Shown here piece after piece: positions 1-7,786 of a DNA stretch of 7,786 nucleotides (its first letter is position 1; every line of letters starts with the position of its first letter). The stretch is from a virus. Lineage: Duplodnaviria > Heunggongvirae > Uroviricota > Caudoviricetes. The position numbers were made by a program, and so were the translations under genes. Under the pieces are notes generated by a model, which had not been told where the DNA came from, did not search any database, and saw only the letters and a program-made list of their open reading frames with translations. The DNA is taken from IMG/VR virus record IMGVR_UViG_638341082_000011, positions 1 through 7,786 of that record. The stretch is one strand, 5' to 3'.

Positions 1-468
1 ATGCCAGATCAAAAAGAAAGTGAGAACACCAAACTCACTTGTGAAGAACAAAAGGATAATGAACTGGTTTCTCGAGTAATCGAAAATCCAGAGGTCTTAA
101 ACAGGGTTTTGGATAGTCCGCAGGTGCGGGCTATTGTTTGCCAGCATTTTCAGGGGCCTGTTCCGCCACCTTCAATGCTTAAAAAGTATGATCAACTGGT
201 GCCTGGGCTTGCAAATCGACTTGTTGAGTTGACCGAAAAAGAGCAGGCTCATCGCCATAAAACAGTGGCTGATAGCATTGATATTGCCAGAGATGGTCAA
301 ACAAAGGCTTTTTGGTTGGCAATATTGATCATCTTAGCTGCCACTGTCTTTGGCGTCATGGGGGAGACAGTTCTTGCCGGAACTCTCGTTTCAATAGATC
401 TTGTTGCATTGGTTACGGCATTTATTGTTGGAAAACATTATTCTAAGCAGGAACCTGATCAAGATTAG
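1..468 (+). CDS. DUF2335-like small membrane protein; probable host-flank gene, possibly 5'-truncated by the window edge
   Basis: ORF from ATG at 1 to TAG at 466-468. Soluble N-terminal part with PPPSMLKKYDQLVPG...EKEQAHRH segment, then two hydrophobic helices (AFWLAILIILAATVFGVMG and LAGTLVSIDLVALVTAFIVG). Convergent with int and followed by an intrinsic terminator. Family assignment is from memory of the DUF2335 pattern. Confidence 0.6.
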   Translation: MPDQKESENTKLTCEEQKDNELVSRVIENPEVLNRVLDSPQVRAIVCQHFQGPVPPPSMLKKYDQLVPGLANRLVELTEKEQAHRHKTVADSIDIARDGQTKAFWLAILIILAATVFGVMGETVLAGTLVSIDLVALVTAFIVGKHYSKQEPDQD

Positions 469-474
469 TCTCTG

Positions 475-499
475 AACCCCGGTTGATGCCGGGGTTTTT
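475..499 (+). terminator. Rho-independent terminator of the upstream plus-strand gene
   Basis: Perfect stem CCCCGG (477-482) / CCGGGG (489-494) with 6-nt loop TTGATG, followed by TTTTT (495-499). Lies 7 nt after the stop codon. Confidence 0.8.
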
Positions 500-544
500 A
501 CACTAGCAAAGCAATATCAACATTTTTCAGCTGTATTTATTTCG

Positions 545-1663
545 TCAAACAACCAATTTAACCCATTCCTGACCACGAGTATCGTTATAACGATCGGTGG
601 TTGCCTGGACTTTATGTCCCAGTAATGTTTTTGTATCAATACCCTGCGCGCGGTACAGTCGTTCTGACAGGGAGCGTTGTTCATGAAATGTTGGCGGAGT
701 TTTTCCTGCTGGTGGAGTTATCCCAGCCAGATCCCGTGCTTTGGCAAAGTAGTCGCTCAGGTTGTCTTTACTCATCGGCTTTGGTTGTTTCTGGTGCCGA
801 CTATGGATTAGATATGGACTTAATATTCTGTCTCGGCACCCATCAATAACTTCTTTTAACGTTATCCCAATGGCATCACAGCGTAGTGTAAGCGGTAACG
901 CCAGACGCATTCCGGTTTTCCCTTGGGTGATATGCAGGTGTTCGTTCCATACATCTGAAAAACGCATGTGGCAAATGTCATCTCGGCGCTGACCAGTAAC
1001 AATCGCAAGAAGCATTGCGTTACGGATAAAGTGTTTTTCAGGCGTTGCGTTGTAAATTTTTTGCCAGTCTTCCAGGGTGAGCCTGGCTCTGGTTACTTTA
1101 GGGATCGGTTTACGGGTAGCCTCCGGAGGATTCCATCCAGGAGGAACTTCCCCTGCATGCTGTGCTTCTTTATAAATATCAACCCATAATCCACGATTTA
1201 CTCTCGCTGTGCTGACCATGTCTTTATCCAGCCACTCATCCAGTATTAATGCAAAGTCTCTTACTTCCAGTTCTTTCAATGGATGGTTTCCCAGACGGGA
1301 AACCAGGTATGCAGCCATTCGGGCTTTTTCTTTGTGAGTTGTAGTTGCAATATCCCCATTTTTCAGTCGCGTGTCCTGTATTTTCAGATATCGATCAACC
1401 CATGCCTTTAATCTGATACCCCGACGTTTTGTTGCTGACGGACTTTCATCAATTTTGCGCATGAAATATTCAGCTTCTGCTGCAGCTATTCGCTGATTGG
1501 CTGTGGAAGCGATTTTTTCTGCTTTGCCTTTGTCTGTTCCGAGACCGTGAAATTTTCCAGTCACAGGGTTTTTATACTGGTAGTAAACCCTGCCAGTTCT
1601 GCGATCAAACTTTTCGTAAAGACCGGTTACGTCAGTGCTGTTTTTTCGTGGCCTCGGTGACAT
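545..1663 (-). CDS. int: Tyrosine site-specific integrase, lambda Int family
   Basis: 372-aa ORF with ATG at 1663 preceded by AAGGAG. C-terminal catalytic region aligns by eye to lambda Int (TGQR..D...M.FSD, QGKTG, PPTFHEQRSLSERLY, LLGHK, RGQEW). Start overlaps the 3' end of xis as in lambda. Confidence 0.95.
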   Translation of the reverse strand: MSPRPRKNSTDVTGLYEKFDRRTGRVYYQYKNPVTGKFHGLGTDKGKAEKIASTANQRIAAAEAEYFMRKIDESPSATKRRGIRLKAWVDRYLKIQDTRLKNGDIATTTHKEKARMAAYLVSRLGNHPLKELEVRDFALILDEWLDKDMVSTARVNRGLWVDIYKEAQHAGEVPPGWNPPEATRKPIPKVTRARLTLEDWQKIYNATPEKHFIRNAMLLAIVTGQRRDDICHMRFSDVWNEHLHITQGKTGMRLALPLTLRCDAIGITLKEVIDGCRDRILSPYLIHSRHQKQPKPMSKDNLSDYFAKARDLAGITPPAGKTPPTFHEQRSLSERLYRAQGIDTKTLLGHKVQATTDRYNDTRGQEWVKLVV

Positions 1664-1901
1664 GAGTTAAAATCTCCTTCAGTGCATCATCATCGCCAGT
1701 ATGAATTTCCGGCGCAATTCCCGTTTCACCAGGTCCAACAAATACTGCCCGGCGATCTATCAGCCAACGCCCACGAATTTTTTGTGGTCTTGGAACGATG
1801 TATCCTAGTTTTCCGTATTTCACCAGGGTAGTGTTTGTTATTGGGAGACTGAACCGTTTTGGTTTCCACTCATCGAGCGTTATCAGGTACTGTTCGCTCA
1901 T
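1632..1901 (-). CDS. xis: Excisionase (Xis-like, 89 aa)
   Basis: ATG at 1901 with GGAG 8 nt upstream; the GTG at 1910 used by the ORF track is less likely. N-terminus YLITLDEW resembles lambda Xis YLTLQEW. Overlaps the int start by 32 nt. Confidence 0.8.
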   Translation of the reverse strand: MSEQYLITLDEWKPKRFSLPITNTTLVKYGKLGYIVPRPQKIRGRWLIDRRAVFVGPGETGIAPEIHTGDDDALKEILTHVTEATKKQH

Positions 1902-1962
1902 GGCTATCACTCCGGAACGCGCCAGTTGCAGAATACCAACGACAACTGGCGACGGTTGAACA

Positions 1963-4434
1963 TTAAAAATCAGCCTGATTCGGAATCAGTTTTTGCCAGA
2001 TAGCTGAAACGTATTTTGCCTGGTAACGGGCGTCATCAAGTGCATTATGGCGCTCACCTTCGAATGGAATAGCCGTTCTGGCATCGAAGTCTATGGCTTT
2101 TCCCAGCTCAACGATTGTGCGTACATCGCGATCGTTGTAGTAACGCCACGGGCAGGGGATCCCCTGCCGTTCGTATGAACGGCGCAAAATCGTGTTGTCG
2201 AAGTTGGCTCCATTTCCCCAGACCTGAACAAAAAATTCACCGGAGTTTTCGTCGATAAATTCCCGCAATTGTAACAGTGCATCATCTAACGGGATTTCAT
2301 CGGTCATAATGGCAGATTGCGCTTCGCGTGATTGCTTAAGCCACCATTTAATGGTGTCCCGATCAATGACTCCGCCAGCAGTTTCCAGATCGATAGTCTT
2401 ACTAAATTCCGGTCCCATATCTCCGGTTTGCGGATCGAAAAATATTGCACCTATTGAGATAATCGGGGCATCAGGATTTTTTCCCATGGTTTCAAGGTCG
2501 ATCATTAGATGGTCACACGTCCTGCTGGCGGATGTGATTTCGTGATGACTGTTCACCTTAATTGAGTGATCTGCCGTCTCGCCAGTTTCATTATCGCTAT
2601 TGTGATGCTGATTGCCGCCAGTGTTCTTCTTGTTTGGATGTTCAGCGCCTTCCATTTCCTCCGGATCATCTTCCTGAACTTCAACCTGATACTCTTCATC
2701 GAATGTTTCCTGGTATGTTGCGTCGCCCATCACCGCGCCACAATCAGGGCAGTTGCCGCCGCCGGTCTGACCGCAGGCGGTGCAGATCTTTTCCGGTTCC
2801 TGTTGCACTACTGGTTCAGGTTGTTTCGTTTCTGGCTCGTTTTGTAACGCATTTGGGCTGTTTTGTTCCGCTTTCTGGCCGTTCTGTTCCGTTTCTTGCT
2901 GGTTCTGGTTCACAGTATCGCGGGTCTGGATCCCCTTAACCCATTTCGGATCATTCGGGTCGCTAATCCCTTCAATAAATTCACCACGTGATGCAGCAAG
3001 CAACTTATCGGCGTCAGGCTGGCTGATATTGGCTGCCTGCATAATTTTGTTTACTTCGTCAGCGGTAACTTTTACCGGTTCTGGCTGTGCGGTCGTGTCA
3101 GATGCACCAGTATTTTGTTGTGAACCTGAGTATGTACTGTTTTTGCGGGCGAAATATTCTTCTTTCGTGATTTCAGTAGCCCCGGCAGCCAGTGCCTTAT
3201 CCAGACCAGAAAGTTTGTTTGCGCGACCGTATTTTTCGCCATCCTTGTCGGTGAAGAGGAAGTAGAACGGCCCCTCACGCTCTACAGATGGTTCGACTTC
3301 CACTTTGCATTCGGTTTTTTCGTTGTCCGGGATTGCCGTTTCCACTGCATCAGTTTCTGGTACTGGCGACGAGAGAGTATCAGTTGCGATCTGATTTCTT
3401 CCTTCATCTTCAAACACGCCCTTTGTAGTCAGGTATTCAGTAATGTATTTGTTCAGTGCCACAGGGTCTTTGTGAATGTCGATCGGACGCTCGCGGACAA
3501 GGCCAAAAATAGTCTGGCGGTCGTAGCGAAGGGCATCAGGCTGTTTGCGCATTGATGCTGAGATACGCTTCCAGTCTTCGCGGTCGTTGTTGATAACTTC
3601 ATTTTTTGCCCAGCGATGGATGCTGCCGTCAATGTTTCCGGCATCAATGTCACCAGGCCACAGAGCGTAGGCCAGTTCATCATCCAGTGTTTTCCATGTC
3701 TGCTTATATTCGCGACGAATGACTGCAGTGACAGGGGGGATATTTTCTGCTGAGTTTTCAGTGTGCTGTCGGTTGACTCTGGCGCGGGCGAGATCAACAG
3801 CAGACGTGTATTTTCCGGTTTCCTTGCGTTCACCTTCGCGACGTTTTTTCCAGATGCGCATCTCTGCCTGAATTTCGGGCCATTTAGCTCCAGGCTTACA
3901 TTTATGCTTAACCCACCCGATGGCATGCAGCTTAAGTTCCGGATACATGGCGTTAACTTCTGGCATTTTCATCAACGCTTCAACGATATGTCCGTCGAAT
4001 GTTGCCATGTCTTCCTGCAACAGTTCCTGTGCACTAATCACCATATCAACGGTGATGTTTTCACATGTGTCGAACTTAACCATGACAGCGTTCTGCACTT
4101 CAGGGGCCAGCTTGTCAAAAGTGACGTTCATCGGATCTGATTCAGTCTCAACCGGGACAAAGGAAGCTGACTCCTCATCCCAGCGGTTTTCCTGCATATA
4201 TTCAGCATCCCAGGAATCGAGGGCAGGGCGGGGTATACCGGGTTTATCCTCGCAAACAAGAAATTTATAAGCGCAGTCCTGAGCAGCCGGATATTGCTCC
4301 AGGAATTGCCAGGTAAATTTGGCACGGGCGCGGCGTTCGTCGCCAGCTTCAATGGCAGTGGCTACAGCGACTGCACCTTCTTCCTTTATTGCCTGTTCGT
4401 CCGGAATAGCGGCGCAAATAAAGACTTTACTCAT
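1963..4434 (-). CDS. Large multidomain prophage protein (823 aa) with C-terminal DnaQ-like DEDDh 3'-5' exonuclease domain, central Cys4 zinc-ribbon motif and acidic/Q-rich linkers; N-terminal about 550 aa of unrecognised function
   Basis: ATG at 4434 with GAGG upstream, TAA at 1963-1965. Last about 183 aa (nt about 1966-2514) carry three exonuclease motifs: Exo I IDLETMG, Exo II GNGANFDNTIL, Exo III HNALDDARYQAKY. CTACGQTGGGNCPDCG (nt about 2734-2784) is a CxxC-x9-CxxC zinc ribbon. Segment KLLAASRGEFIEGISDPNDPKWVKGIQTRD resembles, from memory only, the central part of RecE/exodeoxyribonuclease VIII-annotated prophage proteins. Sits where K-12 Qin has the ydfE pseudogene. Confidence 0.85.
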   Translation of the reverse strand: MSKVFICAAIPDEQAIKEEGAVAVATAIEAGDERRARAKFTWQFLEQYPAAQDCAYKFLVCEDKPGIPRPALDSWDAEYMQENRWDEESASFVPVETESDPMNVTFDKLAPEVQNAVMVKFDTCENITVDMVISAQELLQEDMATFDGHIVEALMKMPEVNAMYPELKLHAIGWVKHKCKPGAKWPEIQAEMRIWKKRREGERKETGKYTSAVDLARARVNRQHTENSAENIPPVTAVIRREYKQTWKTLDDELAYALWPGDIDAGNIDGSIHRWAKNEVINNDREDWKRISASMRKQPDALRYDRQTIFGLVRERPIDIHKDPVALNKYITEYLTTKGVFEDEGRNQIATDTLSSPVPETDAVETAIPDNEKTECKVEVEPSVEREGPFYFLFTDKDGEKYGRANKLSGLDKALAAGATEITKEEYFARKNSTYSGSQQNTGASDTTAQPEPVKVTADEVNKIMQAANISQPDADKLLAASRGEFIEGISDPNDPKWVKGIQTRDTVNQNQQETEQNGQKAEQNSPNALQNEPETKQPEPVVQQEPEKICTACGQTGGGNCPDCGAVMGDATYQETFDEEYQVEVQEDDPEEMEGAEHPNKKNTGGNQHHNSDNETGETADHSIKVNSHHEITSASRTCDHLMIDLETMGKNPDAPIISIGAIFFDPQTGDMGPEFSKTIDLETAGGVIDRDTIKWWLKQSREAQSAIMTDEIPLDDALLQLREFIDENSGEFFVQVWGNGANFDNTILRRSYERQGIPCPWRYYNDRDVRTIVELGKAIDFDARTAIPFEGERHNALDDARYQAKYVSAIWQKLIPNQADF

Positions 4435-4514
4435 GTTGTTTTAACCTCATTACAGATTTAAGGGTGAACAAATCCCTGCCATTGCTGGCATATAAAAATG
4501 AAACCGGATATTAA

Positions 4515-4718
4515 TTACGGTGCTGTTTTAAGTCCTGCCGGGATTTCGTTATTATCCATGTGAATAACTTTATCGACCGGATAACAGTTACCGGGAATTT
4601 TCTGTTCCACTGCGGCAACCATGCATTCTTTCATTGAGCCGTATACGCCAGTAACCATGTCAACCGGTTCACCGGAAACAAGAAAAACCGTCAGAACAAG
4701 TGCAAATGTAGTATTCAT
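4515..4718 (-). CDS. ydfD: YdfD-like DUF1482 small protein with N-terminal hydrophobic segment (67 aa); Qin YdfD is reported as a lysis protein
   Basis: ATG at 4718 with AGGA 8 nt upstream. Start overlaps the dicB-like stop in an ATGA junction (4715-4718). Translation MNTTFALVLTVFLVSGEP...QKIPGNCYPVDKVIH...IPAGL matches my recollection of Qin YdfD. Synteny dicB then ydfD is as in K-12. Confidence 0.8.
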   Translation of the reverse strand: MNTTFALVLTVFLVSGEPVDMVTGVYGSMKECMVAAVEQKIPGNCYPVDKVIHMDNNEIPAGLKTAP

Positions 4719-4903
4719 TGCCAGCATCCTTTTTGCATCAGGCGTAAACGGGCCAGCATTGAAACAATGCATATTTTATCCAATAGCTCCCGTTCTTGTT
4801 TCCTCTTGTTAATGGCATCTTCAGTAAATACTGGGTTACTGATAGTGACACCAATTTCAAAACAACCTTCAGACGTATTAACGTTTGGTAATAACGTTTT
4901 CAT
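4715..4903 (-). CDS. dicB: DicB-like cell division inhibitor (62 aa)
   Basis: ATG at 4903 with GAGGG 7 nt upstream; the longer GTG-initiated frame from 5008 has no RBS. Translation MKTLLPNVNTSEGCFEIGVTISNPVFTEDAINKRKQERELL.KICIVSMLARLRLM.KGC.Q is near-identical to E. coli K-12 DicB as I recall it. Sits downstream of a DicF-like element. Confidence 0.85.
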   Translation of the reverse strand: MKTLLPNVNTSEGCFEIGVTISNPVFTEDAINKRKQERELLDKICIVSMLARLRLMQKGCWQ

Positions 4904-5072
4904 TATCGCACCCTCAACAATGAATTTTGTGATGCGGCGCCTGGTGCCTCCAGGTGACGTTAACCAGTTAACAATTAACGCCGGATACAGAGAACCCATC
5001 CATAACACTGTTTTTGGTTTTAACTGTTCCGCGTGCGCTCAGCCGCATTCACCGCATCACAAAATTCACTTT

Positions 5073-5130
5073 AAAAAGGGCAGCAGAGCAGTCACGGAGT
5101 AAAACTGATACCACCAAACGTCACCAGAAA
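5073..5130 (-). ncRNA. dicF: DicF-like small regulatory RNA with 3' intrinsic terminator
   Basis: Minus strand reads TTTCTGGTGACGTTTGGTGGTATCAGTTTTACTCCGTGACTGCTCTGCTGCCCTTTTT. This matches the recalled K-12 DicF except GGCGG->GGTGG and CCGCC->CTGCC, both keeping the stem as G-U wobble pairs. Inner stem CAGU/ACUG present, T-run at 5073-5077. Lies about 170 nt upstream of dicB. Ends are approximate. Confidence 0.7.
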
Positions 5131-5465
5131 ATTGATAACAGAGGGCGTTGCAGCGGGGTTGTCACTTAAGCGTATGGTCAACCTGGCAACCCGGTGTCTC
5201 AATGGGGGAGGAATAACCCCGCCATACTTACCGCCGCGCCATTTCGCGGAGTGCCACAACCGGAAGCGCACGGTCGAATTAAATTTAACGACACCGTACA
5301 GTGAGACGAACTTCGCCGTGCGCTTTCGCGTTATGCCCTGGCTTTTCAGGGATATATCCTTTCAGTAAACTGTCAGTACCGGATTCTTATCCGTGTCCGG
5401 CGCACGACCACACGTGGCAGCGTGTTGGTCTCCATTTTTAACCCAGAACCTCAATGGAGGATAAA

Positions 5466-5675
5466 ATGCCAAACAAAAAAAGAAATCCGCTTATTGAAAA
5501 ACAGATTGAATGCCTGGTAAATCAACTCAGGCAATCAGGGTTATTAAAAACTCATTCAGAGTTGAGGCTCACAGAATCAGCATTCGATGATAAATTAAAT
5601 AATGTCCTTTATAATGGCATTATTGATTTTAATCGTTCAGTTGGTCGCCTCGGCCCTGCTGGTGTTTCCTTATAA
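5466..5675 (+). CDS. Hypothetical 69-aa protein, AT-rich, convergent with and abutting the 216-aa gene
   Basis: ATG at 5466 preceded by GGAGG (5456-5460) with 5-nt spacer; the upstream in-frame ATG at 5454 lies inside the RBS. Translation MPNKKRNPLIEKQIECLVNQLRQSGLL... has no recognised family. Visibly more AT-rich than its surroundings. Stop TAA (5673-5675) directly abuts the minus-strand stop (5676-5678). May not be a real gene. Confidence 0.4.
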   Translation: MPNKKRNPLIEKQIECLVNQLRQSGLLKTHSELRLTESAFDDKLNNVLYNGIIDFNRSVGRLGPAGVSL

Positions 5676-6326
5676 TTACCAGTCAATCCAGAGCGGACCG
5701 TGTTCAGCGTAAATATAACTGTACACATCCAGATTATATTTGTGGTCTGTTAAGAACAGGCCGCAAATACATGCCGAAGCTTCCAGGGCAGCGGCTCTGT
5801 TACTGAATAACCATGTGGCAACATTCCAGCGTTTTTCTGCATCCCAGTCTTTCTCAAGGCCTGATACCATGAAGAAACCGTTAGTGTTGCCATCAAATAA
5901 TTCTGTTTCCAGATTTTTAAGCAATGCCTGATGGACTCTTGCCAGGTATTCCGCCGGAATTTCGCCACGAATTCTGATGAGATTGTCATAAACAAACATG
6001 TTCCCCGCATATGGCGATTTTTCTTTCTTGTTTTTTAAACCAGCATCATGAGCAAACTGATCAATTTCTTCTTCCGTTGGTTTCGTATTGATGTTTTGCG
6101 CTGTCGTTTCTGCAATTTTATTTGCCACACTATCTGAGTCGTGTTTATTTACAGACGCACAGAAATACAATCCGGTAAACGCATCGCGCACATTACGAGC
6201 CATATTATCAGTGTCTTTTTTCGTTACCGATTCCAATGCAAGTTCGTTCAGACGATGACGAAGTGTGTGTGCTGCAATCTCCTGGATTGAAGTAGGTAAA
6301 TCTTTAAATTCCATCGTCAACCTCAT
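5676..6326 (-). CDS. Hypothetical protein (216 aa, or 212 aa from the internal start), function unknown; cargo gene in the early-left operon
   Basis: Long intact ORF. ATG at 6326 overlaps the ydfA-like stop by 1 nt (TGATG); an alternative ATG at 6314 (MEFKD...) has GAGG 6 nt upstream. No recognisable catalytic or family motif by inspection. Occupies the position held by ydfB/ydfC in K-12 Qin. Confidence 0.75.
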   Translation of the reverse strand: MRLTMEFKDLPTSIQEIAAHTLRHRLNELALESVTKKDTDNMARNVRDAFTGLYFCASVNKHDSDSVANKIAETTAQNINTKPTEEEIDQFAHDAGLKNKKEKSPYAGNMFVYDNLIRIRGEIPAEYLARVHQALLKNLETELFDGNTNGFFMVSGLEKDWDAEKRWNVATWLFSNRAAALEASACICGLFLTDHKYNLDVYSYIYAEHGPLWIDW

Positions 6327-6478
6327 CAGTCAGAGTTTCTTGCTAACCAGCGATGCGCGCCAGCTTCGGTTTTAAACGTTTTGCTTTTGGTATACGTCAT
6401 CGCGGTGAACGTGCCGTCCTGGTTGGGAAACACGCCGTACACCAGAGATTCGTTGTTACCAAGATCGATAGTATCCAT
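6326..6478 (-). CDS. ydfA: YdfA-like small protein (50 aa)
   Basis: ATG at 6478 with GAGG 5 nt upstream. The 85-aa frame in the ORF track starts at a TTG (6583) that is the -35 of the proposed promoter. Size and position right after the dicA-like repressor match K-12 YdfA (51 aa); the sequence match is from memory. Confidence 0.6.
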   Translation of the reverse strand: MDTIDLGNNESLVYGVFPNQDGTFTAMTYTKSKTFKTEAGAHRWLARNSD

Positions 6479-6554
6479 GTTGACCTCATTTCCCCTTAAC
6501 GCCGGGTAGCGGAACTGTTTGCTGAGAACACCGTGCGGTGTCTTGATGGGTGGT

Positions 6555-6583
6555 AATTTAGTTTTCTCATGACTGTTGGTCAA
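6555..6583 (-). promoter_or_regulatory. Candidate leftward early promoter (pL-like) for the ydfA/dicB operon
   Basis: On the minus strand: -35 TTGACC (6583->6578), 17-bp spacer, -10 TAAATT (6560->6555). An operator copy overlaps the spacer and -10. Predicted by eye only. Confidence 0.45.
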
Positions 6584-6607
6584 GTGCTTTTAATGAGAAA
6601 ACTCAAT
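6556..6607. promoter_or_regulatory. Left operator region: two inverted copies of the ATGAGAAAACT(C/A)AAT motif
   Basis: AATGAGAAAACTCAAT at 6592-6607 on the plus strand and ATGAGAAAACTAAAT on the minus strand over 6556-6570, separated by 21 bp. Same motif as the palindrome at 7125-7140. Confidence 0.6.
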
Positions 6608-6612
6608 ATTTA

Positions 6613-6651
6613 ATGCAAAATAAAGCCAATACATTGAAATGTAAGGCTTTA
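6613..6651 (-). terminator. Candidate intrinsic terminator downstream of the repressor gene
   Basis: On the minus strand: AAAGCCTTACATT-TC-AATGTATTGGCTTT imperfect hairpin followed by ATTTTG. Lies between the repressor stop (6668) and the left operators. U-tract is short and the stem is AT-rich, so strength is uncertain. Confidence 0.4.
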
Positions 6652-6667
6652 AAATTTGTGAAGGGGA

Positions 6668-7075
6668 TTACTGATGTTTGTTACGTTTGCGAGCTTCTAG
6701 TAGCTCGGTGAATAGGCGATTAAAATTCTCAACGCGGGCACGGAGTTCGCTGATTTGTGCTTGCTGCTCTGATTTTGGAAGTGCGCGATACAATCGCAAC
6801 ATCTCCAACTCATCTTCCGATAAGTCTAAGGCGCTGTTGAGTGCAACTGGTGGATCTGGTGTTTTATCCTCGTCACCAAACAGTATCCAAGTTGGTGAAC
6901 ATTGCAATACCTCAGCCAGGCGATGCAAATTTTGCCCACGCGGGGCTGTATGGTCGCTTTCCCATAGTGAAATTGATGAGCCAGATACGCCAGCGGCTTT
7001 GCTTAAATCGTTTTGACTTAAACCAACCTGTTTGCGTCTTTCTCTAATTCGTTGACCTAAAGTTTTCTCGTTCAT
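6668..7075 (-). CDS. dicA: DicA-like HTH (XRE-family) prophage repressor, 135 aa
   Basis: ATG at 7075, TAA at 6668-6670. N-terminal HTH (LGQRIRERRKQVGLSQNDLSKAAGVSGSSISLWE). Segment LQCSPTWILFGDEDK and overall length match my recollection of K-12 DicA. Divergent from a Cro-like gene with operators on both sides. Confidence 0.9.
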   Translation of the reverse strand: MNEKTLGQRIRERRKQVGLSQNDLSKAAGVSGSSISLWESDHTAPRGQNLHRLAEVLQCSPTWILFGDEDKTPDPPVALNSALDLSEDELEMLRLYRALPKSEQQAQISELRARVENFNRLFTELLEARKRNKHQ

Positions 7076-7096
7076 ATTTAGATATCTTAATAACCC

Positions 7097-7126
7097 TTGA
7101 CTTGAGATTCCTTGAGTGATTACTAT
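7097..7126 (+). promoter_or_regulatory. Candidate rightward promoter (pR-like) for the dicC-like gene
   Basis: -35 TTGACT (7097-7102), 18-bp spacer, -10 TACTAT (7121-7126). The -10 overlaps the operator palindrome. The spacer contains two CTTGAG half-site repeats at 7101-7106 and 7111-7116. Confidence 0.5.
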
Positions 7127-7140
7127 TGAGAAAACTCAAT
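7125..7140. promoter_or_regulatory. Right operator: palindrome ATTGAG-AAAA-CTCAAT
   Basis: Perfect 6-bp inverted arms with a 4-bp spacer, overlapping the -10 and start region of the rightward promoter. An inverted partial copy GAGAAAACT is on the minus strand at 7061-7069, spanning repressor codons 3-5. Confidence 0.65.
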
Positions 7141-7152
7141 TTTGGAGGGGTG

Positions 7153-7380
7153 ATGTTTAAATCAGACGTAATTAATTTTTATGGGACGAAAGCCAAAGTA
7201 GCGAAAGCTGCTGGTGTTGATCCATCTGCTGTTTCTCAATGGGGGGAACTGGTTCCTGAAGGTCGCGCGATGCGCCTGCAAGAGGCATCTGGCGGGGAGC
7301 TTCAGTATGATCCCAAAGTTTATGACGAATATCGTAAGACGAAGCGGGCGGGGCGGTTGAACAATGAAAATCACCCCTGA
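7153..7380 (+). CDS. dicC: DicC/YdaS-like Cro-type HTH regulator (75 aa)
   Basis: ATG at 7153 preceded by GGAGGGG (7144-7150); the TTG at 7126 lies inside the operator and is unlikely. HTH segment GTKAKVAKAAGVDPSAVSQW. Divergent from the repressor. Confidence 0.85.
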   Translation: MFKSDVINFYGTKAKVAKAAGVDPSAVSQWGELVPEGRAMRLQEASGGELQYDPKVYDEYRKTKRAGRLNNENHP

Positions 7381-7786
7381 ACAGGTTTGTGAGGCTCTGG
7401 ATGCCTGGGTGTGCCGACCAGGAATGACACAGGAGCAGGCGACGATATTAATCACGGAAGCATTCTGGGCTCTGAAAGAACGCCCGAACATCGATGTTCA
7501 ACGCGTCACGTTTAATGATGGCGAGGTTGATCAACGGGCGCTGGGCGTTAACCGGGTGAAGATATTCGAACGCTGGAAAGCTATCGACACCAGGGATAAG
7601 CGGAAAAAATTCACGGCGCTGATTCCGGCAATTATGGAGGCTATCCGGATTAATGATTTCAGGTTGTATCGTGAAATTAGTGACGGAAAAAGCATCACGT
7701 ACATGATCGCCGGGTTAAACAAAGAATATGGCGATGTGGTGGAGTCCGGGCTGCTTTTTGCAGATCCAGCTGTAGTGGATCGGAAA
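7364..7786 (+). CDS. YdaT-like protein (cII-position gene), 3'-truncated by the window edge
   Basis: ATG at 7364 overlaps the dicC-like 3' end by 17 nt in another frame; the frame is open to the window end (141 codons). Not in the ORF track because no stop is reached. Translation MKITPEQVCEALDAWVCRPG...RVKIFERWKAIDT...ALIPAIMEA resembles YdaT-family proteins from memory. Synteny repressor, cro-like, ydaT-like matches Rac racR-ydaS-ydaT. Confidence 0.6.
   Translation, partial: MKITPEQVCEALDAWVCRPGMTQEQATILITEAFWALKERPNIDVQRVTFNDGEVDQRALGVNRVKIFERWKAIDTRDKRKKFTALIPAIMEAIRINDFRLYREISDGKSITYMIAGLNKEYGDVVESGLLFADPAVVDRK

Follow-up and report, generated by a model that had tools for sequence, protein, structure and literature searches.

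A variable two-gene cassette between ydfA and DicF of dicBF-type prophages: a possible effector domain with a small matched partner

Two convergent genes in the place of ydfB and ydfC

The stretch of DNA analysed here (7,786 nucleotides (nt), positions 1 to 7,786 of the IMG/VR virus record IMGVR_UViG_638341082_000011; hereafter the window) holds the left arm of a lambdoid prophage of the Qin/dicBF type, inserted next to potC, and DNA of E. coli AST85 is 100% identical to it. Between ydfA and the small RNA (sRNA) DicF this prophage carries a cassette of two genes facing each other, a small one on the plus strand and a large one on the minus strand (Table 1), which are the subject of this work. 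The initial annotation of the window, made from its letters alone, had proposed that a cargo module replaces ydfB and ydfC on an otherwise conserved backbone, and this was borne out. Rfam, Pfam and blastn against the Qin prophage of K-12 (NC_000913) recovered the dicA-type repressor, ydfA, DicF, dicB and a ydfD-like gene, in this order and on one strand. Homology to Qin in blastn was confined to 4403-5406 (90.5%) and 6333-6548 (93.1%); since it ends at 5406 and restarts at 6333, the DNA in between, with both genes inside, stands in the place of ydfB/ydfC. Both open reading frames (ORFs) lay where they had been annotated, and the GGAGG ribosome-binding site of the small one was confirmed. The description of the small ORF as AT-rich held in direction (GC content 0.362, as against 0.463 for the whole window; the large gene has 0.419), but the difference is modest.

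The large gene codes for an acidic protein (pI 5.3) that had initially been read as 216 amino acids (aa) long and translationally coupled to ydfA. An ATG at 6326 does overlap the ydfA stop codon (ATGA) and would give this length (5676-6326, minus strand), but the conserved and annotated start, used by PGAP, the PHROG profile and all homologues, is at 6314 and is preceded by GAGG at a distance of 7 nt; the gene almost certainly begins at MEFKDL and encodes 212 aa. The protein matched phrog_2151 with E 5.2e-145 (residues 5-216 of the longer ORF, profile positions 1-212), a family annotated as 'unknown function'. It consists of two domains. Residues 1-55/90 of the N-terminal helical domain recur in many prophage proteins of 85-201 aa with unrelated C-termini, and PHROGs 1363, 9419, 6937 and 33007 matched residues 5-79 only. 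After a linker modelled with low confidence (residues ~93-100) follows a C-terminal alpha/beta domain, for which AlphaFold2, with Salmonella relatives added to the input, gave a pLDDT of 72-89 over residues 101-190 and the topology b-b-a-b-b-a-b. Its invariant polar positions cluster in the loop FDGxxNGxF and in W.FS...A.E. The two domains also differ in their evolution: omega was about 0.2 for the C-domain and 0.4-0.8 for the N-domain, and dS values of the small ORF (0.38-0.54) resembled those of the C-domain (0.42-0.52), with the N-domain discordant (0.13-0.93), which indicates recombination inside the large gene, between its N- and C-domains.

The small gene codes for a basic protein (pI 9.4) that matched phrog_4274 end to end (E 1.1e-50, profile positions 1-69), again a family annotated as 'unknown function'. 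Its GGAGG is followed by a 5-nt spacer, and its TAA stop codon directly abuts the TAA stop codon of the large gene (5676-5678). Compared with a second group of E. coli alleles (27-32 differences in 207 nt), its own frame gave dN/dS ratios of 0.17-0.27; the other frames contain 3-8 stops each and gave ratios of 0.77-3.9, except for one antisense frame with 0.28-0.53. PGAP annotates the ORF in complete genomes, and its 36 homologues are confined to E. coli, E. albertii and Salmonella. Judged by these sequence comparisons, the small ORF is a real gene, and purifying selection acts on it as well as on the large gene. The initial annotation had named two outcomes that would count against a role in defence or toxicity; what we found was that neither protein matches a housekeeping phage family and that the reading frame is conserved in related prophages.

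Of 5,426 complete E. coli genomes, 601 contained the start region of the small ORF, at 747 places and no more than four times per genome. An intact allele was the best match in 535 of the genomes carrying it, and the group-A alleles of complete genomes were identical over this region in 535 of 541 cases. A run of seven A residues lies close to the start codon, and in 8 of 73 IMG/VR loci, all from drafts, the deletion of one of them (A6) truncates the ORF. Among complete genomes, about four to five, from O26 and O145:H28, have this frameshift as their best allele. The A6 allele could reflect decay, an error of draft sequencing or on/off switching by slipped-strand mispairing.

Neither protein belongs to a characterised family according to Pfam, NCBIfam, PADLOC and PDB profile searches, in agreement with the initial annotation. 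Scans of both proteins, the Salmonella relatives and the cassette types B-D described below against Pfam, NCBIfam and PADLOC returned noise only; PADLOC-DB v2.0.0 held no family at E <= 1 for either protein, and sequence-profile searches of the PDB with both gave no match. Fold searches of the large protein yielded generic alpha/beta resemblances only. One of them, to the Prp/YsxB-like (DUF464) cysteine proteases, was followed up (Foldseek TM 0.40-0.45 on the target and 0.24-0.27 on the query; E 9e-4 in BFVD and 0.07 in the PDB) and rejected because the Salmonella relatives do not conserve Cys182/Cys184 and the His residues that the E. coli proteins have. In the small protein no helix-turn-helix (HTH) or other nucleic-acid-binding family was detected, nor any similarity to the Qin antirepressor Rem. 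By composition both proteins are soluble and cytoplasmic (GRAVY -0.41 for the small and -0.45 for the large one), and neither sequence contains a hydrophobic stretch that could be a transmembrane segment or lipoprotein signal of the SieB, Imm or Cor type. The suggestion of a toxin, antitoxin, defence or host-takeover function found no support, PADLOC giving no match and the fold searches the generic resemblances mentioned.

Both proteins had already been catalogued, in PHROGs with unknown function and as hypothetical proteins, one source using the name 'Ybl81'. A search of 5.8 billion proteins found no annotated relative, and the C-domain occurred there only in prophage proteins of E. coli and Salmonella. 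In a HMMER search of 1.84 billion representatives it was present in one 50% E. coli cluster, a few truncated fragments and a small group of Salmonella-type proteins of 206-286 aa. The species representatives of GTDB hold no copy of either gene, and metagenome copies were E. coli-like only. The small ORF of the window's type was absent from 50,697 deposited phage genomes, and that of the Salmonella type was not found in IMG/VR. When the literature was searched for the gene name, accession, PHROG id and DUF1391, no paper naming the proteins and no study on the pair or on the variable slot came up, and the papers on dicBF do not discuss the slot between ydfA and DicF.

Co-inheritance of the pair and exchange of cassette types

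All 73 IMG/VR loci retrieved through the small ORF also carry the C-domain, convergent, stop-to-stop and with identical spacing. Elsewhere these loci vary: identity to the window ranges from 24 to 100% for the repressor, from 55 to 100% for dicB and from 50 to 100% for the N-domain allele. The pair also occurs in Salmonella prophages with a different backbone, in which P2-type modules of integrase, HTH_3 repressor and Cox precede the large gene, at four chromosomal integration sites and without DicF. There, the C-domain is 33-43% identical to that of the window and is fused to an unrelated N-domain; the small ORF (64-69 aa) is 46-56% identical, again convergent, and overlaps the large gene by 11-53 nt. 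The identities of the two partners co-vary across all comparisons with r = 0.91, a value calculated from data points that are not independent of each other. Their charges are complementary in the E. coli and in the Salmonella pairs, with a pI of 9.4 for the small protein and 4.9 for the C-domain. On this sequence evidence, C-domain and small ORF are co-inherited in two phage backbones. In one Salmonella-type variant, P0180 (L253/L254, 3001-3861), an HTH_3 domain of the XRE family is inserted after the N-domain and before the conserved C-domain, a hint, as far as a domain match can give one, that this variant at least may bind DNA or have a regulatory role.

The initial annotation had suggested comparing prophages to see whether the slot is variable; it is, and five cassette types were found at loci retrieved through the N-domain. 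In the window's own type A, a large protein of 212 aa stands against a small one of 69 aa. Type B combines 112/119 aa with 64 aa (L136), type C 186 aa with a zinc-ribbon-like protein of 80 aa (L161), and type D 129 aa with about 99 aa (L217). Type E (121 aa and 66 aa) comes from mEp460_ev081, a functional dicBF phage in which both genes are annotated. In every type the small ORF is convergent. One N-domain is thus joined to at least five mutually unrelated C-termini, each accompanied by an unrelated small ORF of its own in convergent orientation; when the type-a profile was compared by hhalign with the small proteins b, c and e, no relationship was seen. Sorted by large and small partner, the 58 distinct cassettes fell into the combinations A-a (45), B-b (4), C-c (6), D-d (2) and E-e (1), and mixed combinations were not observed.

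The DNA immediately upstream of the small ORF, with an invariant ATGGAGGATAAA in it, is common to types A-D and the Salmonella pairs. Because this upstream DNA is common to the types and the C-termini are unrelated, the exchangeable unit runs from the start codon of the small ORF to the junction of the N- and C-domains; ATGGAGGATAAA, being common to the unrelated small ORFs of types A-D, marks the left edge of the exchangeable cassette. A further occurrence of the N-domain was noted in Stx2a phages, where it is fused to a type-D-like C-terminus (L256 2501-2896, ORF16 of phage P13374, and about 70 other Stx phages). This relative sits after genes of the exo region, not after ydfA, and has no convergent small ORF.

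Operon backbone, leader and promoters

Table 1. Features of the cassette and its surroundings in the window.
Feature	Position	Strand	Remarks
Small gene	5466-5675	+	ATG 5466, TAA stop 5673-5675, 69 aa, phrog_4274
A7 run near small-gene start	5475-5481	+	shortened to A6 in frameshifted alleles
Large gene	5676-6314	-	212 aa, start MEFKDL, phrog_2151
N-terminal helical domain	6039-6314	-	residues 1-92; core 1-55, MEFKDLP...NVRDAFTGLY
C-terminal alpha/beta domain	5679-6023	-	residues 98-212; family-specific, the part that co-occurs with the small gene
Cassette without homology to K-12 Qin	5407-6332		926 bp, contains both genes
ATGGAGGATAAA, ribosome-binding region of small gene	5454-5465	+	invariant; GGAGG 5456-5460, ATGGAG 5454-5459
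Conserved leader	5379-5435	+	hairpin 1 (5379-5400), hairpin 2 (5406-5430), CTCCAT (5430-5435)
Candidate sigma-70 promoter of small gene	5343-5371	+	predicted; TTTTCA-17-TAAACT, 8/12 matches; -10 at 5366-5371
Promoter-like site, dicA-ydfA intergenic	6555-6583	-	TTGACC-17-TAAATT
Inverted repeat, 15 nt	6556-6570/6593-6607		overlaps the promoter-like site
DicF sRNA	5078-5129	-	Rfam 66.9 bits, gathering score 48
Long stem upstream of DicF	5261-5273/5316-5328		
ydfA (DUF1391)	6326-6478	-	Pfam E 1e-28
dicA-type repressor	6668-7075	-	
dicC		+	

The minus strand of the window reads integrase, excisionase, an 823-aa exonuclease, DUF1482 (ydfD-like), dicB, DicF, large gene, ydfA and dicA-type repressor. 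The dicB product matched Pfam DicB (PF05358) with E 2e-38, and the DUF1482 gene its family with E 8e-23. At the DNA level, similarity of the repressor to K-12 dicA was weak (77.6% over 67 nt), which implies a different immunity type. The exonuclease (1963-4434, minus strand) is composite, with an acidic, Q-rich middle of low complexity; it covers part of the exodeoxyribonuclease VIII model (286 bits, cut-off 1269), and PGAP names it a 3'-5' exonuclease. In some related prophages, isrK and a C4 antisense RNA are found downstream of the cassette in place of DicF (L067 808-996; L077 8582-8669), and the sRNA slot beside the cassette is therefore variable too.

The small gene is preceded by a conserved leader. 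Hairpin 1 is invariant. The stem of hairpin 2 varies in a mutually compensating way, with at least four different sequences among the window, K-12 and Salmonella. The invariant CTCCAT that follows is the exact complement of the invariant ATGGAG, which overlaps the Shine-Dalgarno sequence (SD), and the single natural variant of the latter, GTGGAG, retains a U-G pair. RNAfold predicted the SD of the small gene to be paired (z = -2.4). From the sequence it is possible that CTCCAT acts as an anti-SD element, and this complementarity together with the predicted pairing means that translation of the small ORF may be gated. K-12 Qin, in which there is no small ORF, has both hairpins too; these may therefore be part of the opposite-strand dicBF transcript, instead of or besides the mRNA of the small gene; G-U wobbles of hairpin 2 occur on both strands. 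The dicBF transcript is processed by the enzymes RNase III and RNase E (PMC10448788). That types A-D and the Salmonella pairs share leader and SD points to a dedicated platform for expression of the small ORF, separate from the operon.

A candidate promoter for the small gene lies upstream of the leader. Its -10 element TAAACT ends 7 nt before hairpin 1. Nearly all E. coli variants have the candidate in this place, and a locus with different upstream sequence has TAAAAT at the equivalent position. A stricter promoter scan did not pick this candidate up. In the intergenic region of dicA and ydfA, a second promoter-like site overlaps a 15-nt inverted repeat; by analogy with dicBp of K-12 (PMC10448788), 6555-6607 is probably the early-left promoter, of dicBp type, for ydfA, the large gene, DicF and dicB, together with the operator of the repressor. 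A scan for intrinsic terminators found none that separates the two genes of the cassette, and the terminator-like hairpin at 5650-5662 is weak. Another structural element is the long stem upstream of DicF, which Salmonella prophages retain, the changes there being compensatory (GCGCACGG/CCGTGCGC versus GCGCACTA/TAGTGCGC). This stem seems to belong to a larger untranslated region, conserved and structured, at about 5133-5445, that beyond DicF lies outside the coverage of Rfam.

Possible roles of the pair

Our preferred explanation, which we put forward tentatively, is that the large protein carries an effector domain and the small protein is its cognate binding partner or inhibitor, the two being expressed reciprocally through convergent transcription. 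Upon induction, or upon infection of a non-immune cell, the early-left promoter that the repressor controls would drive production of the large protein along with ydfA, DicF and dicB. Its N-terminal helical domain would serve as a common adaptor, and the specific action would reside in its C-terminal alpha/beta domain. Expression of the small basic protein would depend on a separate promoter and leader, those on the opposite strand, and would presumably take place in the lysogen; this protein would bind and neutralise, or otherwise specifically control, the C-terminal domain, which is acidic. Since the genes meet at their stop codons, strong transcription from the early-left side would cross the small gene in antisense and shut it off. 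In lysogeny, the small gene would thus be on and the large gene off, and derepression would reverse this. The physical interaction, the direction of control, the timing of expression and a toxic, anti-host or anti-phage activity are things that we only infer.

In favour of this explanation we count the conservation of the pair at all 73 loci and in a second backbone, the five matched combinations without a mixed one, the leader and SD common to types A-D and the Salmonella pairs, the complementary charges and the fact that almost all complete genomes with the small ORF have it intact. Several observations weigh against this explanation. Adjacency alone, the genes abutting or overlapping, could yield both the co-inheritance and the diagonal table of cassette types. 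The D-like large protein occurs on its own in about 70 Stx-converting phages, where the d-type small ORF is absent. The A6-frameshifted small ORF is found beside an intact large gene, and the small protein is therefore not required to carry a repressed large gene. The small proteins b, d and e are not basic. Pfam, NCBIfam, PADLOC, PDB and fold searches gave no homology or fold match to a toxin, antitoxin, immunity or defence protein. In all related loci the genes are convergent, stop-to-stop or overlapping, not joined in one operon as in type II toxin-antitoxin systems. Finally, the promoter of the small gene is a weak prediction, and its SD may, from the sequence, be sequestered.

Three of these points, namely the abutting genes, between which recombination is unlikely so that a diagonal table would be expected anyway, the D-like protein standing alone and the frameshifted small ORF beside an intact large gene, also speak for independent accessory genes. 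Here, a 'moron' slot would plug unrelated small lysogeny-expressed genes into a common promoter, leader and SD, the large protein would have a separate early-lytic role, and the pairing would reflect physical linkage. The carriage of unrelated small ORFs behind a common leader and SD fits this, as does the lack of a family link between the two proteins. We nevertheless consider it somewhat unlikely, since C-domain and small ORF have stayed together, intact and convergent, even as their identity fell to 33-43% and 46-56%, the N-domain was swapped and the phage backbone changed, since the geometry is identical in five independent combinations and since the charges are complementary in both the E. 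coli and the Salmonella lineages. That complementarity, the strict matching of type to type and the co-divergence would also be expected of co-acting partners, the small protein being a chaperone, activator or second subunit needed by the C-domain, as the C-termini of tail fibres need cognate assembly proteins. Convergent genes with separate promoters and a possibly sequestered SD would however be an odd design for subunits required simultaneously, and intact large genes persist next to frameshifted small ORFs, which makes such a partnership improbable.

The position of the small gene, between the promoter-proximal genes and DicF/dicB and antisense to the operon transcript, allows for a regulatory module as well. 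The small gene with its promoter and leader would throttle early-left read-through into DicF, dicB and ydfD, by convergent transcription, an antisense RNA or a DNA/RNA-binding protein, and so shield the lysogen from leaky division inhibitors. The basic small protein, the structured and conserved leader and the XRE HTH insert in one relative of the large protein are in line with this. It is quite unlikely all the same: a role at the RNA level or by interference needs no purifying selection on the protein (dN/dS ~0.2), the matching of unrelated small proteins to unrelated C-termini is left unexplained, the pair is kept in Salmonella loci without any DicF, and the searches detected no HTH or other nucleic-acid-binding family in the small protein. 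We regard as least probable, to the point of being hardly credible, that the roles are reversed, with a harmful small basic protein kept untranslated by the anti-SD leader and neutralised by the large acidic protein, as in type II toxin-antitoxin systems. The charges of the two proteins, a leader that could sequester the SD and the HTH_3 insert of P0180 (many antitoxins carry an XRE HTH) would suit this arrangement. However, types b, d and e have small proteins that are not basic, the searches detected neither a toxin family nor a toxin fold, the genes are convergent instead of forming an operon, and frameshifted small ORFs are rare, whereas they would be expected to be common for a toxin gene.

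Comparison with known systems brought out likenesses in arrangement and differences in nearly everything else. In the pore-forming colicin/immunity pairs (colicins A, E1 and Ia), the larger gene is under a repressor-controlled promoter and a small cognate gene lies immediately downstream on the opposite strand, with its own promoter, in many unrelated matched types. The cassette has the same layout, a repressor-controlled large gene and a convergent small gene with a predicted promoter of its own. Sequence and fold are however not similar, the proteins of the window are soluble by composition and without translocation, receptor or pore domains, the setting is a phage early operon and not a plasmid SOS operon, and inhibition by the small protein is here a proposal. 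With CdiA-CT/CdiI and Rhs-CT/RhsI the cassette shares a conserved N-terminal part, a sharp boundary and unrelated, exchangeable C-termini, each type followed by its own small gene (a pattern that adjacency alone could give), as well as exchange through recombination in conserved flanks. It differs in that Pfam and NCBIfam detected neither a secretion or delivery domain nor a C-terminal toxin domain, in that the neighbours are phage early genes, and in that the proteins are far smaller (112-212 aa) and hydrophilic and the partner gene is convergent, not co-directional.

The sieB/esc function of P22 and lambda provides superinfection exclusion with self-immunity from an early-left location; SieB itself sits in the membrane, and Esc is produced in frame from within the sieB gene. 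The location beside the immunity region and the idea of a prophage-expressed function with self-protection are alike, whereas the window has two separate convergent genes for proteins soluble by composition and without homology to these. Type II toxin-antitoxin systems resemble the cassette as two-gene modules on a mobile element, present in multiple copies per genome and, in type A, with a basic small protein and an acidic partner; the differences are that no recognised toxin or antitoxin family or fold was found and that the small gene can be frameshifted while the large gene is intact. The ydfB/ydfC genes of K-12 Qin fill precisely this slot, from ydfA to the DicF leader, but their sequences are unrelated and both lie on the operon strand, and K-12 has neither a convergent ORF nor ATGGAGGATAAA. 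They, too, are of unknown function (PMC5069750).

A bolder version of our preferred explanation, which we think unlikely, is that of an intracellular polymorphic effector-immunity system of temperate phages. The small 'immunity' protein of a lysogen would neutralise only the matching C-terminal effector made from the early operon of an incoming or co-resident phage, and the type of cassette would decide which lambdoid phages develop in a polylysogen, a form of kin discrimination or warfare between prophages. The N-domain would then be a targeting adaptor and the anti-SD leader the switch.

In conclusion, the cassette is common, is found in the O157:H7, O26, O145 and O111 lineages and lies directly between the prophage repressor and the host-active functions DicF and DicB. 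Should a matched pair turn out to be the wrong reading, an accessory slot exchanged by recombination and a conserved structured leader in the dicBF operon are still defined. If that reading is true, at least five unrelated combinations of effector and partner have a single adaptor domain in common, and four of these also a single platform for expression. The cassette would then offer a possible source of new protein-protein specificity pairs and a compact, testable system for how co-resident lambdoid prophages control their host or each other.

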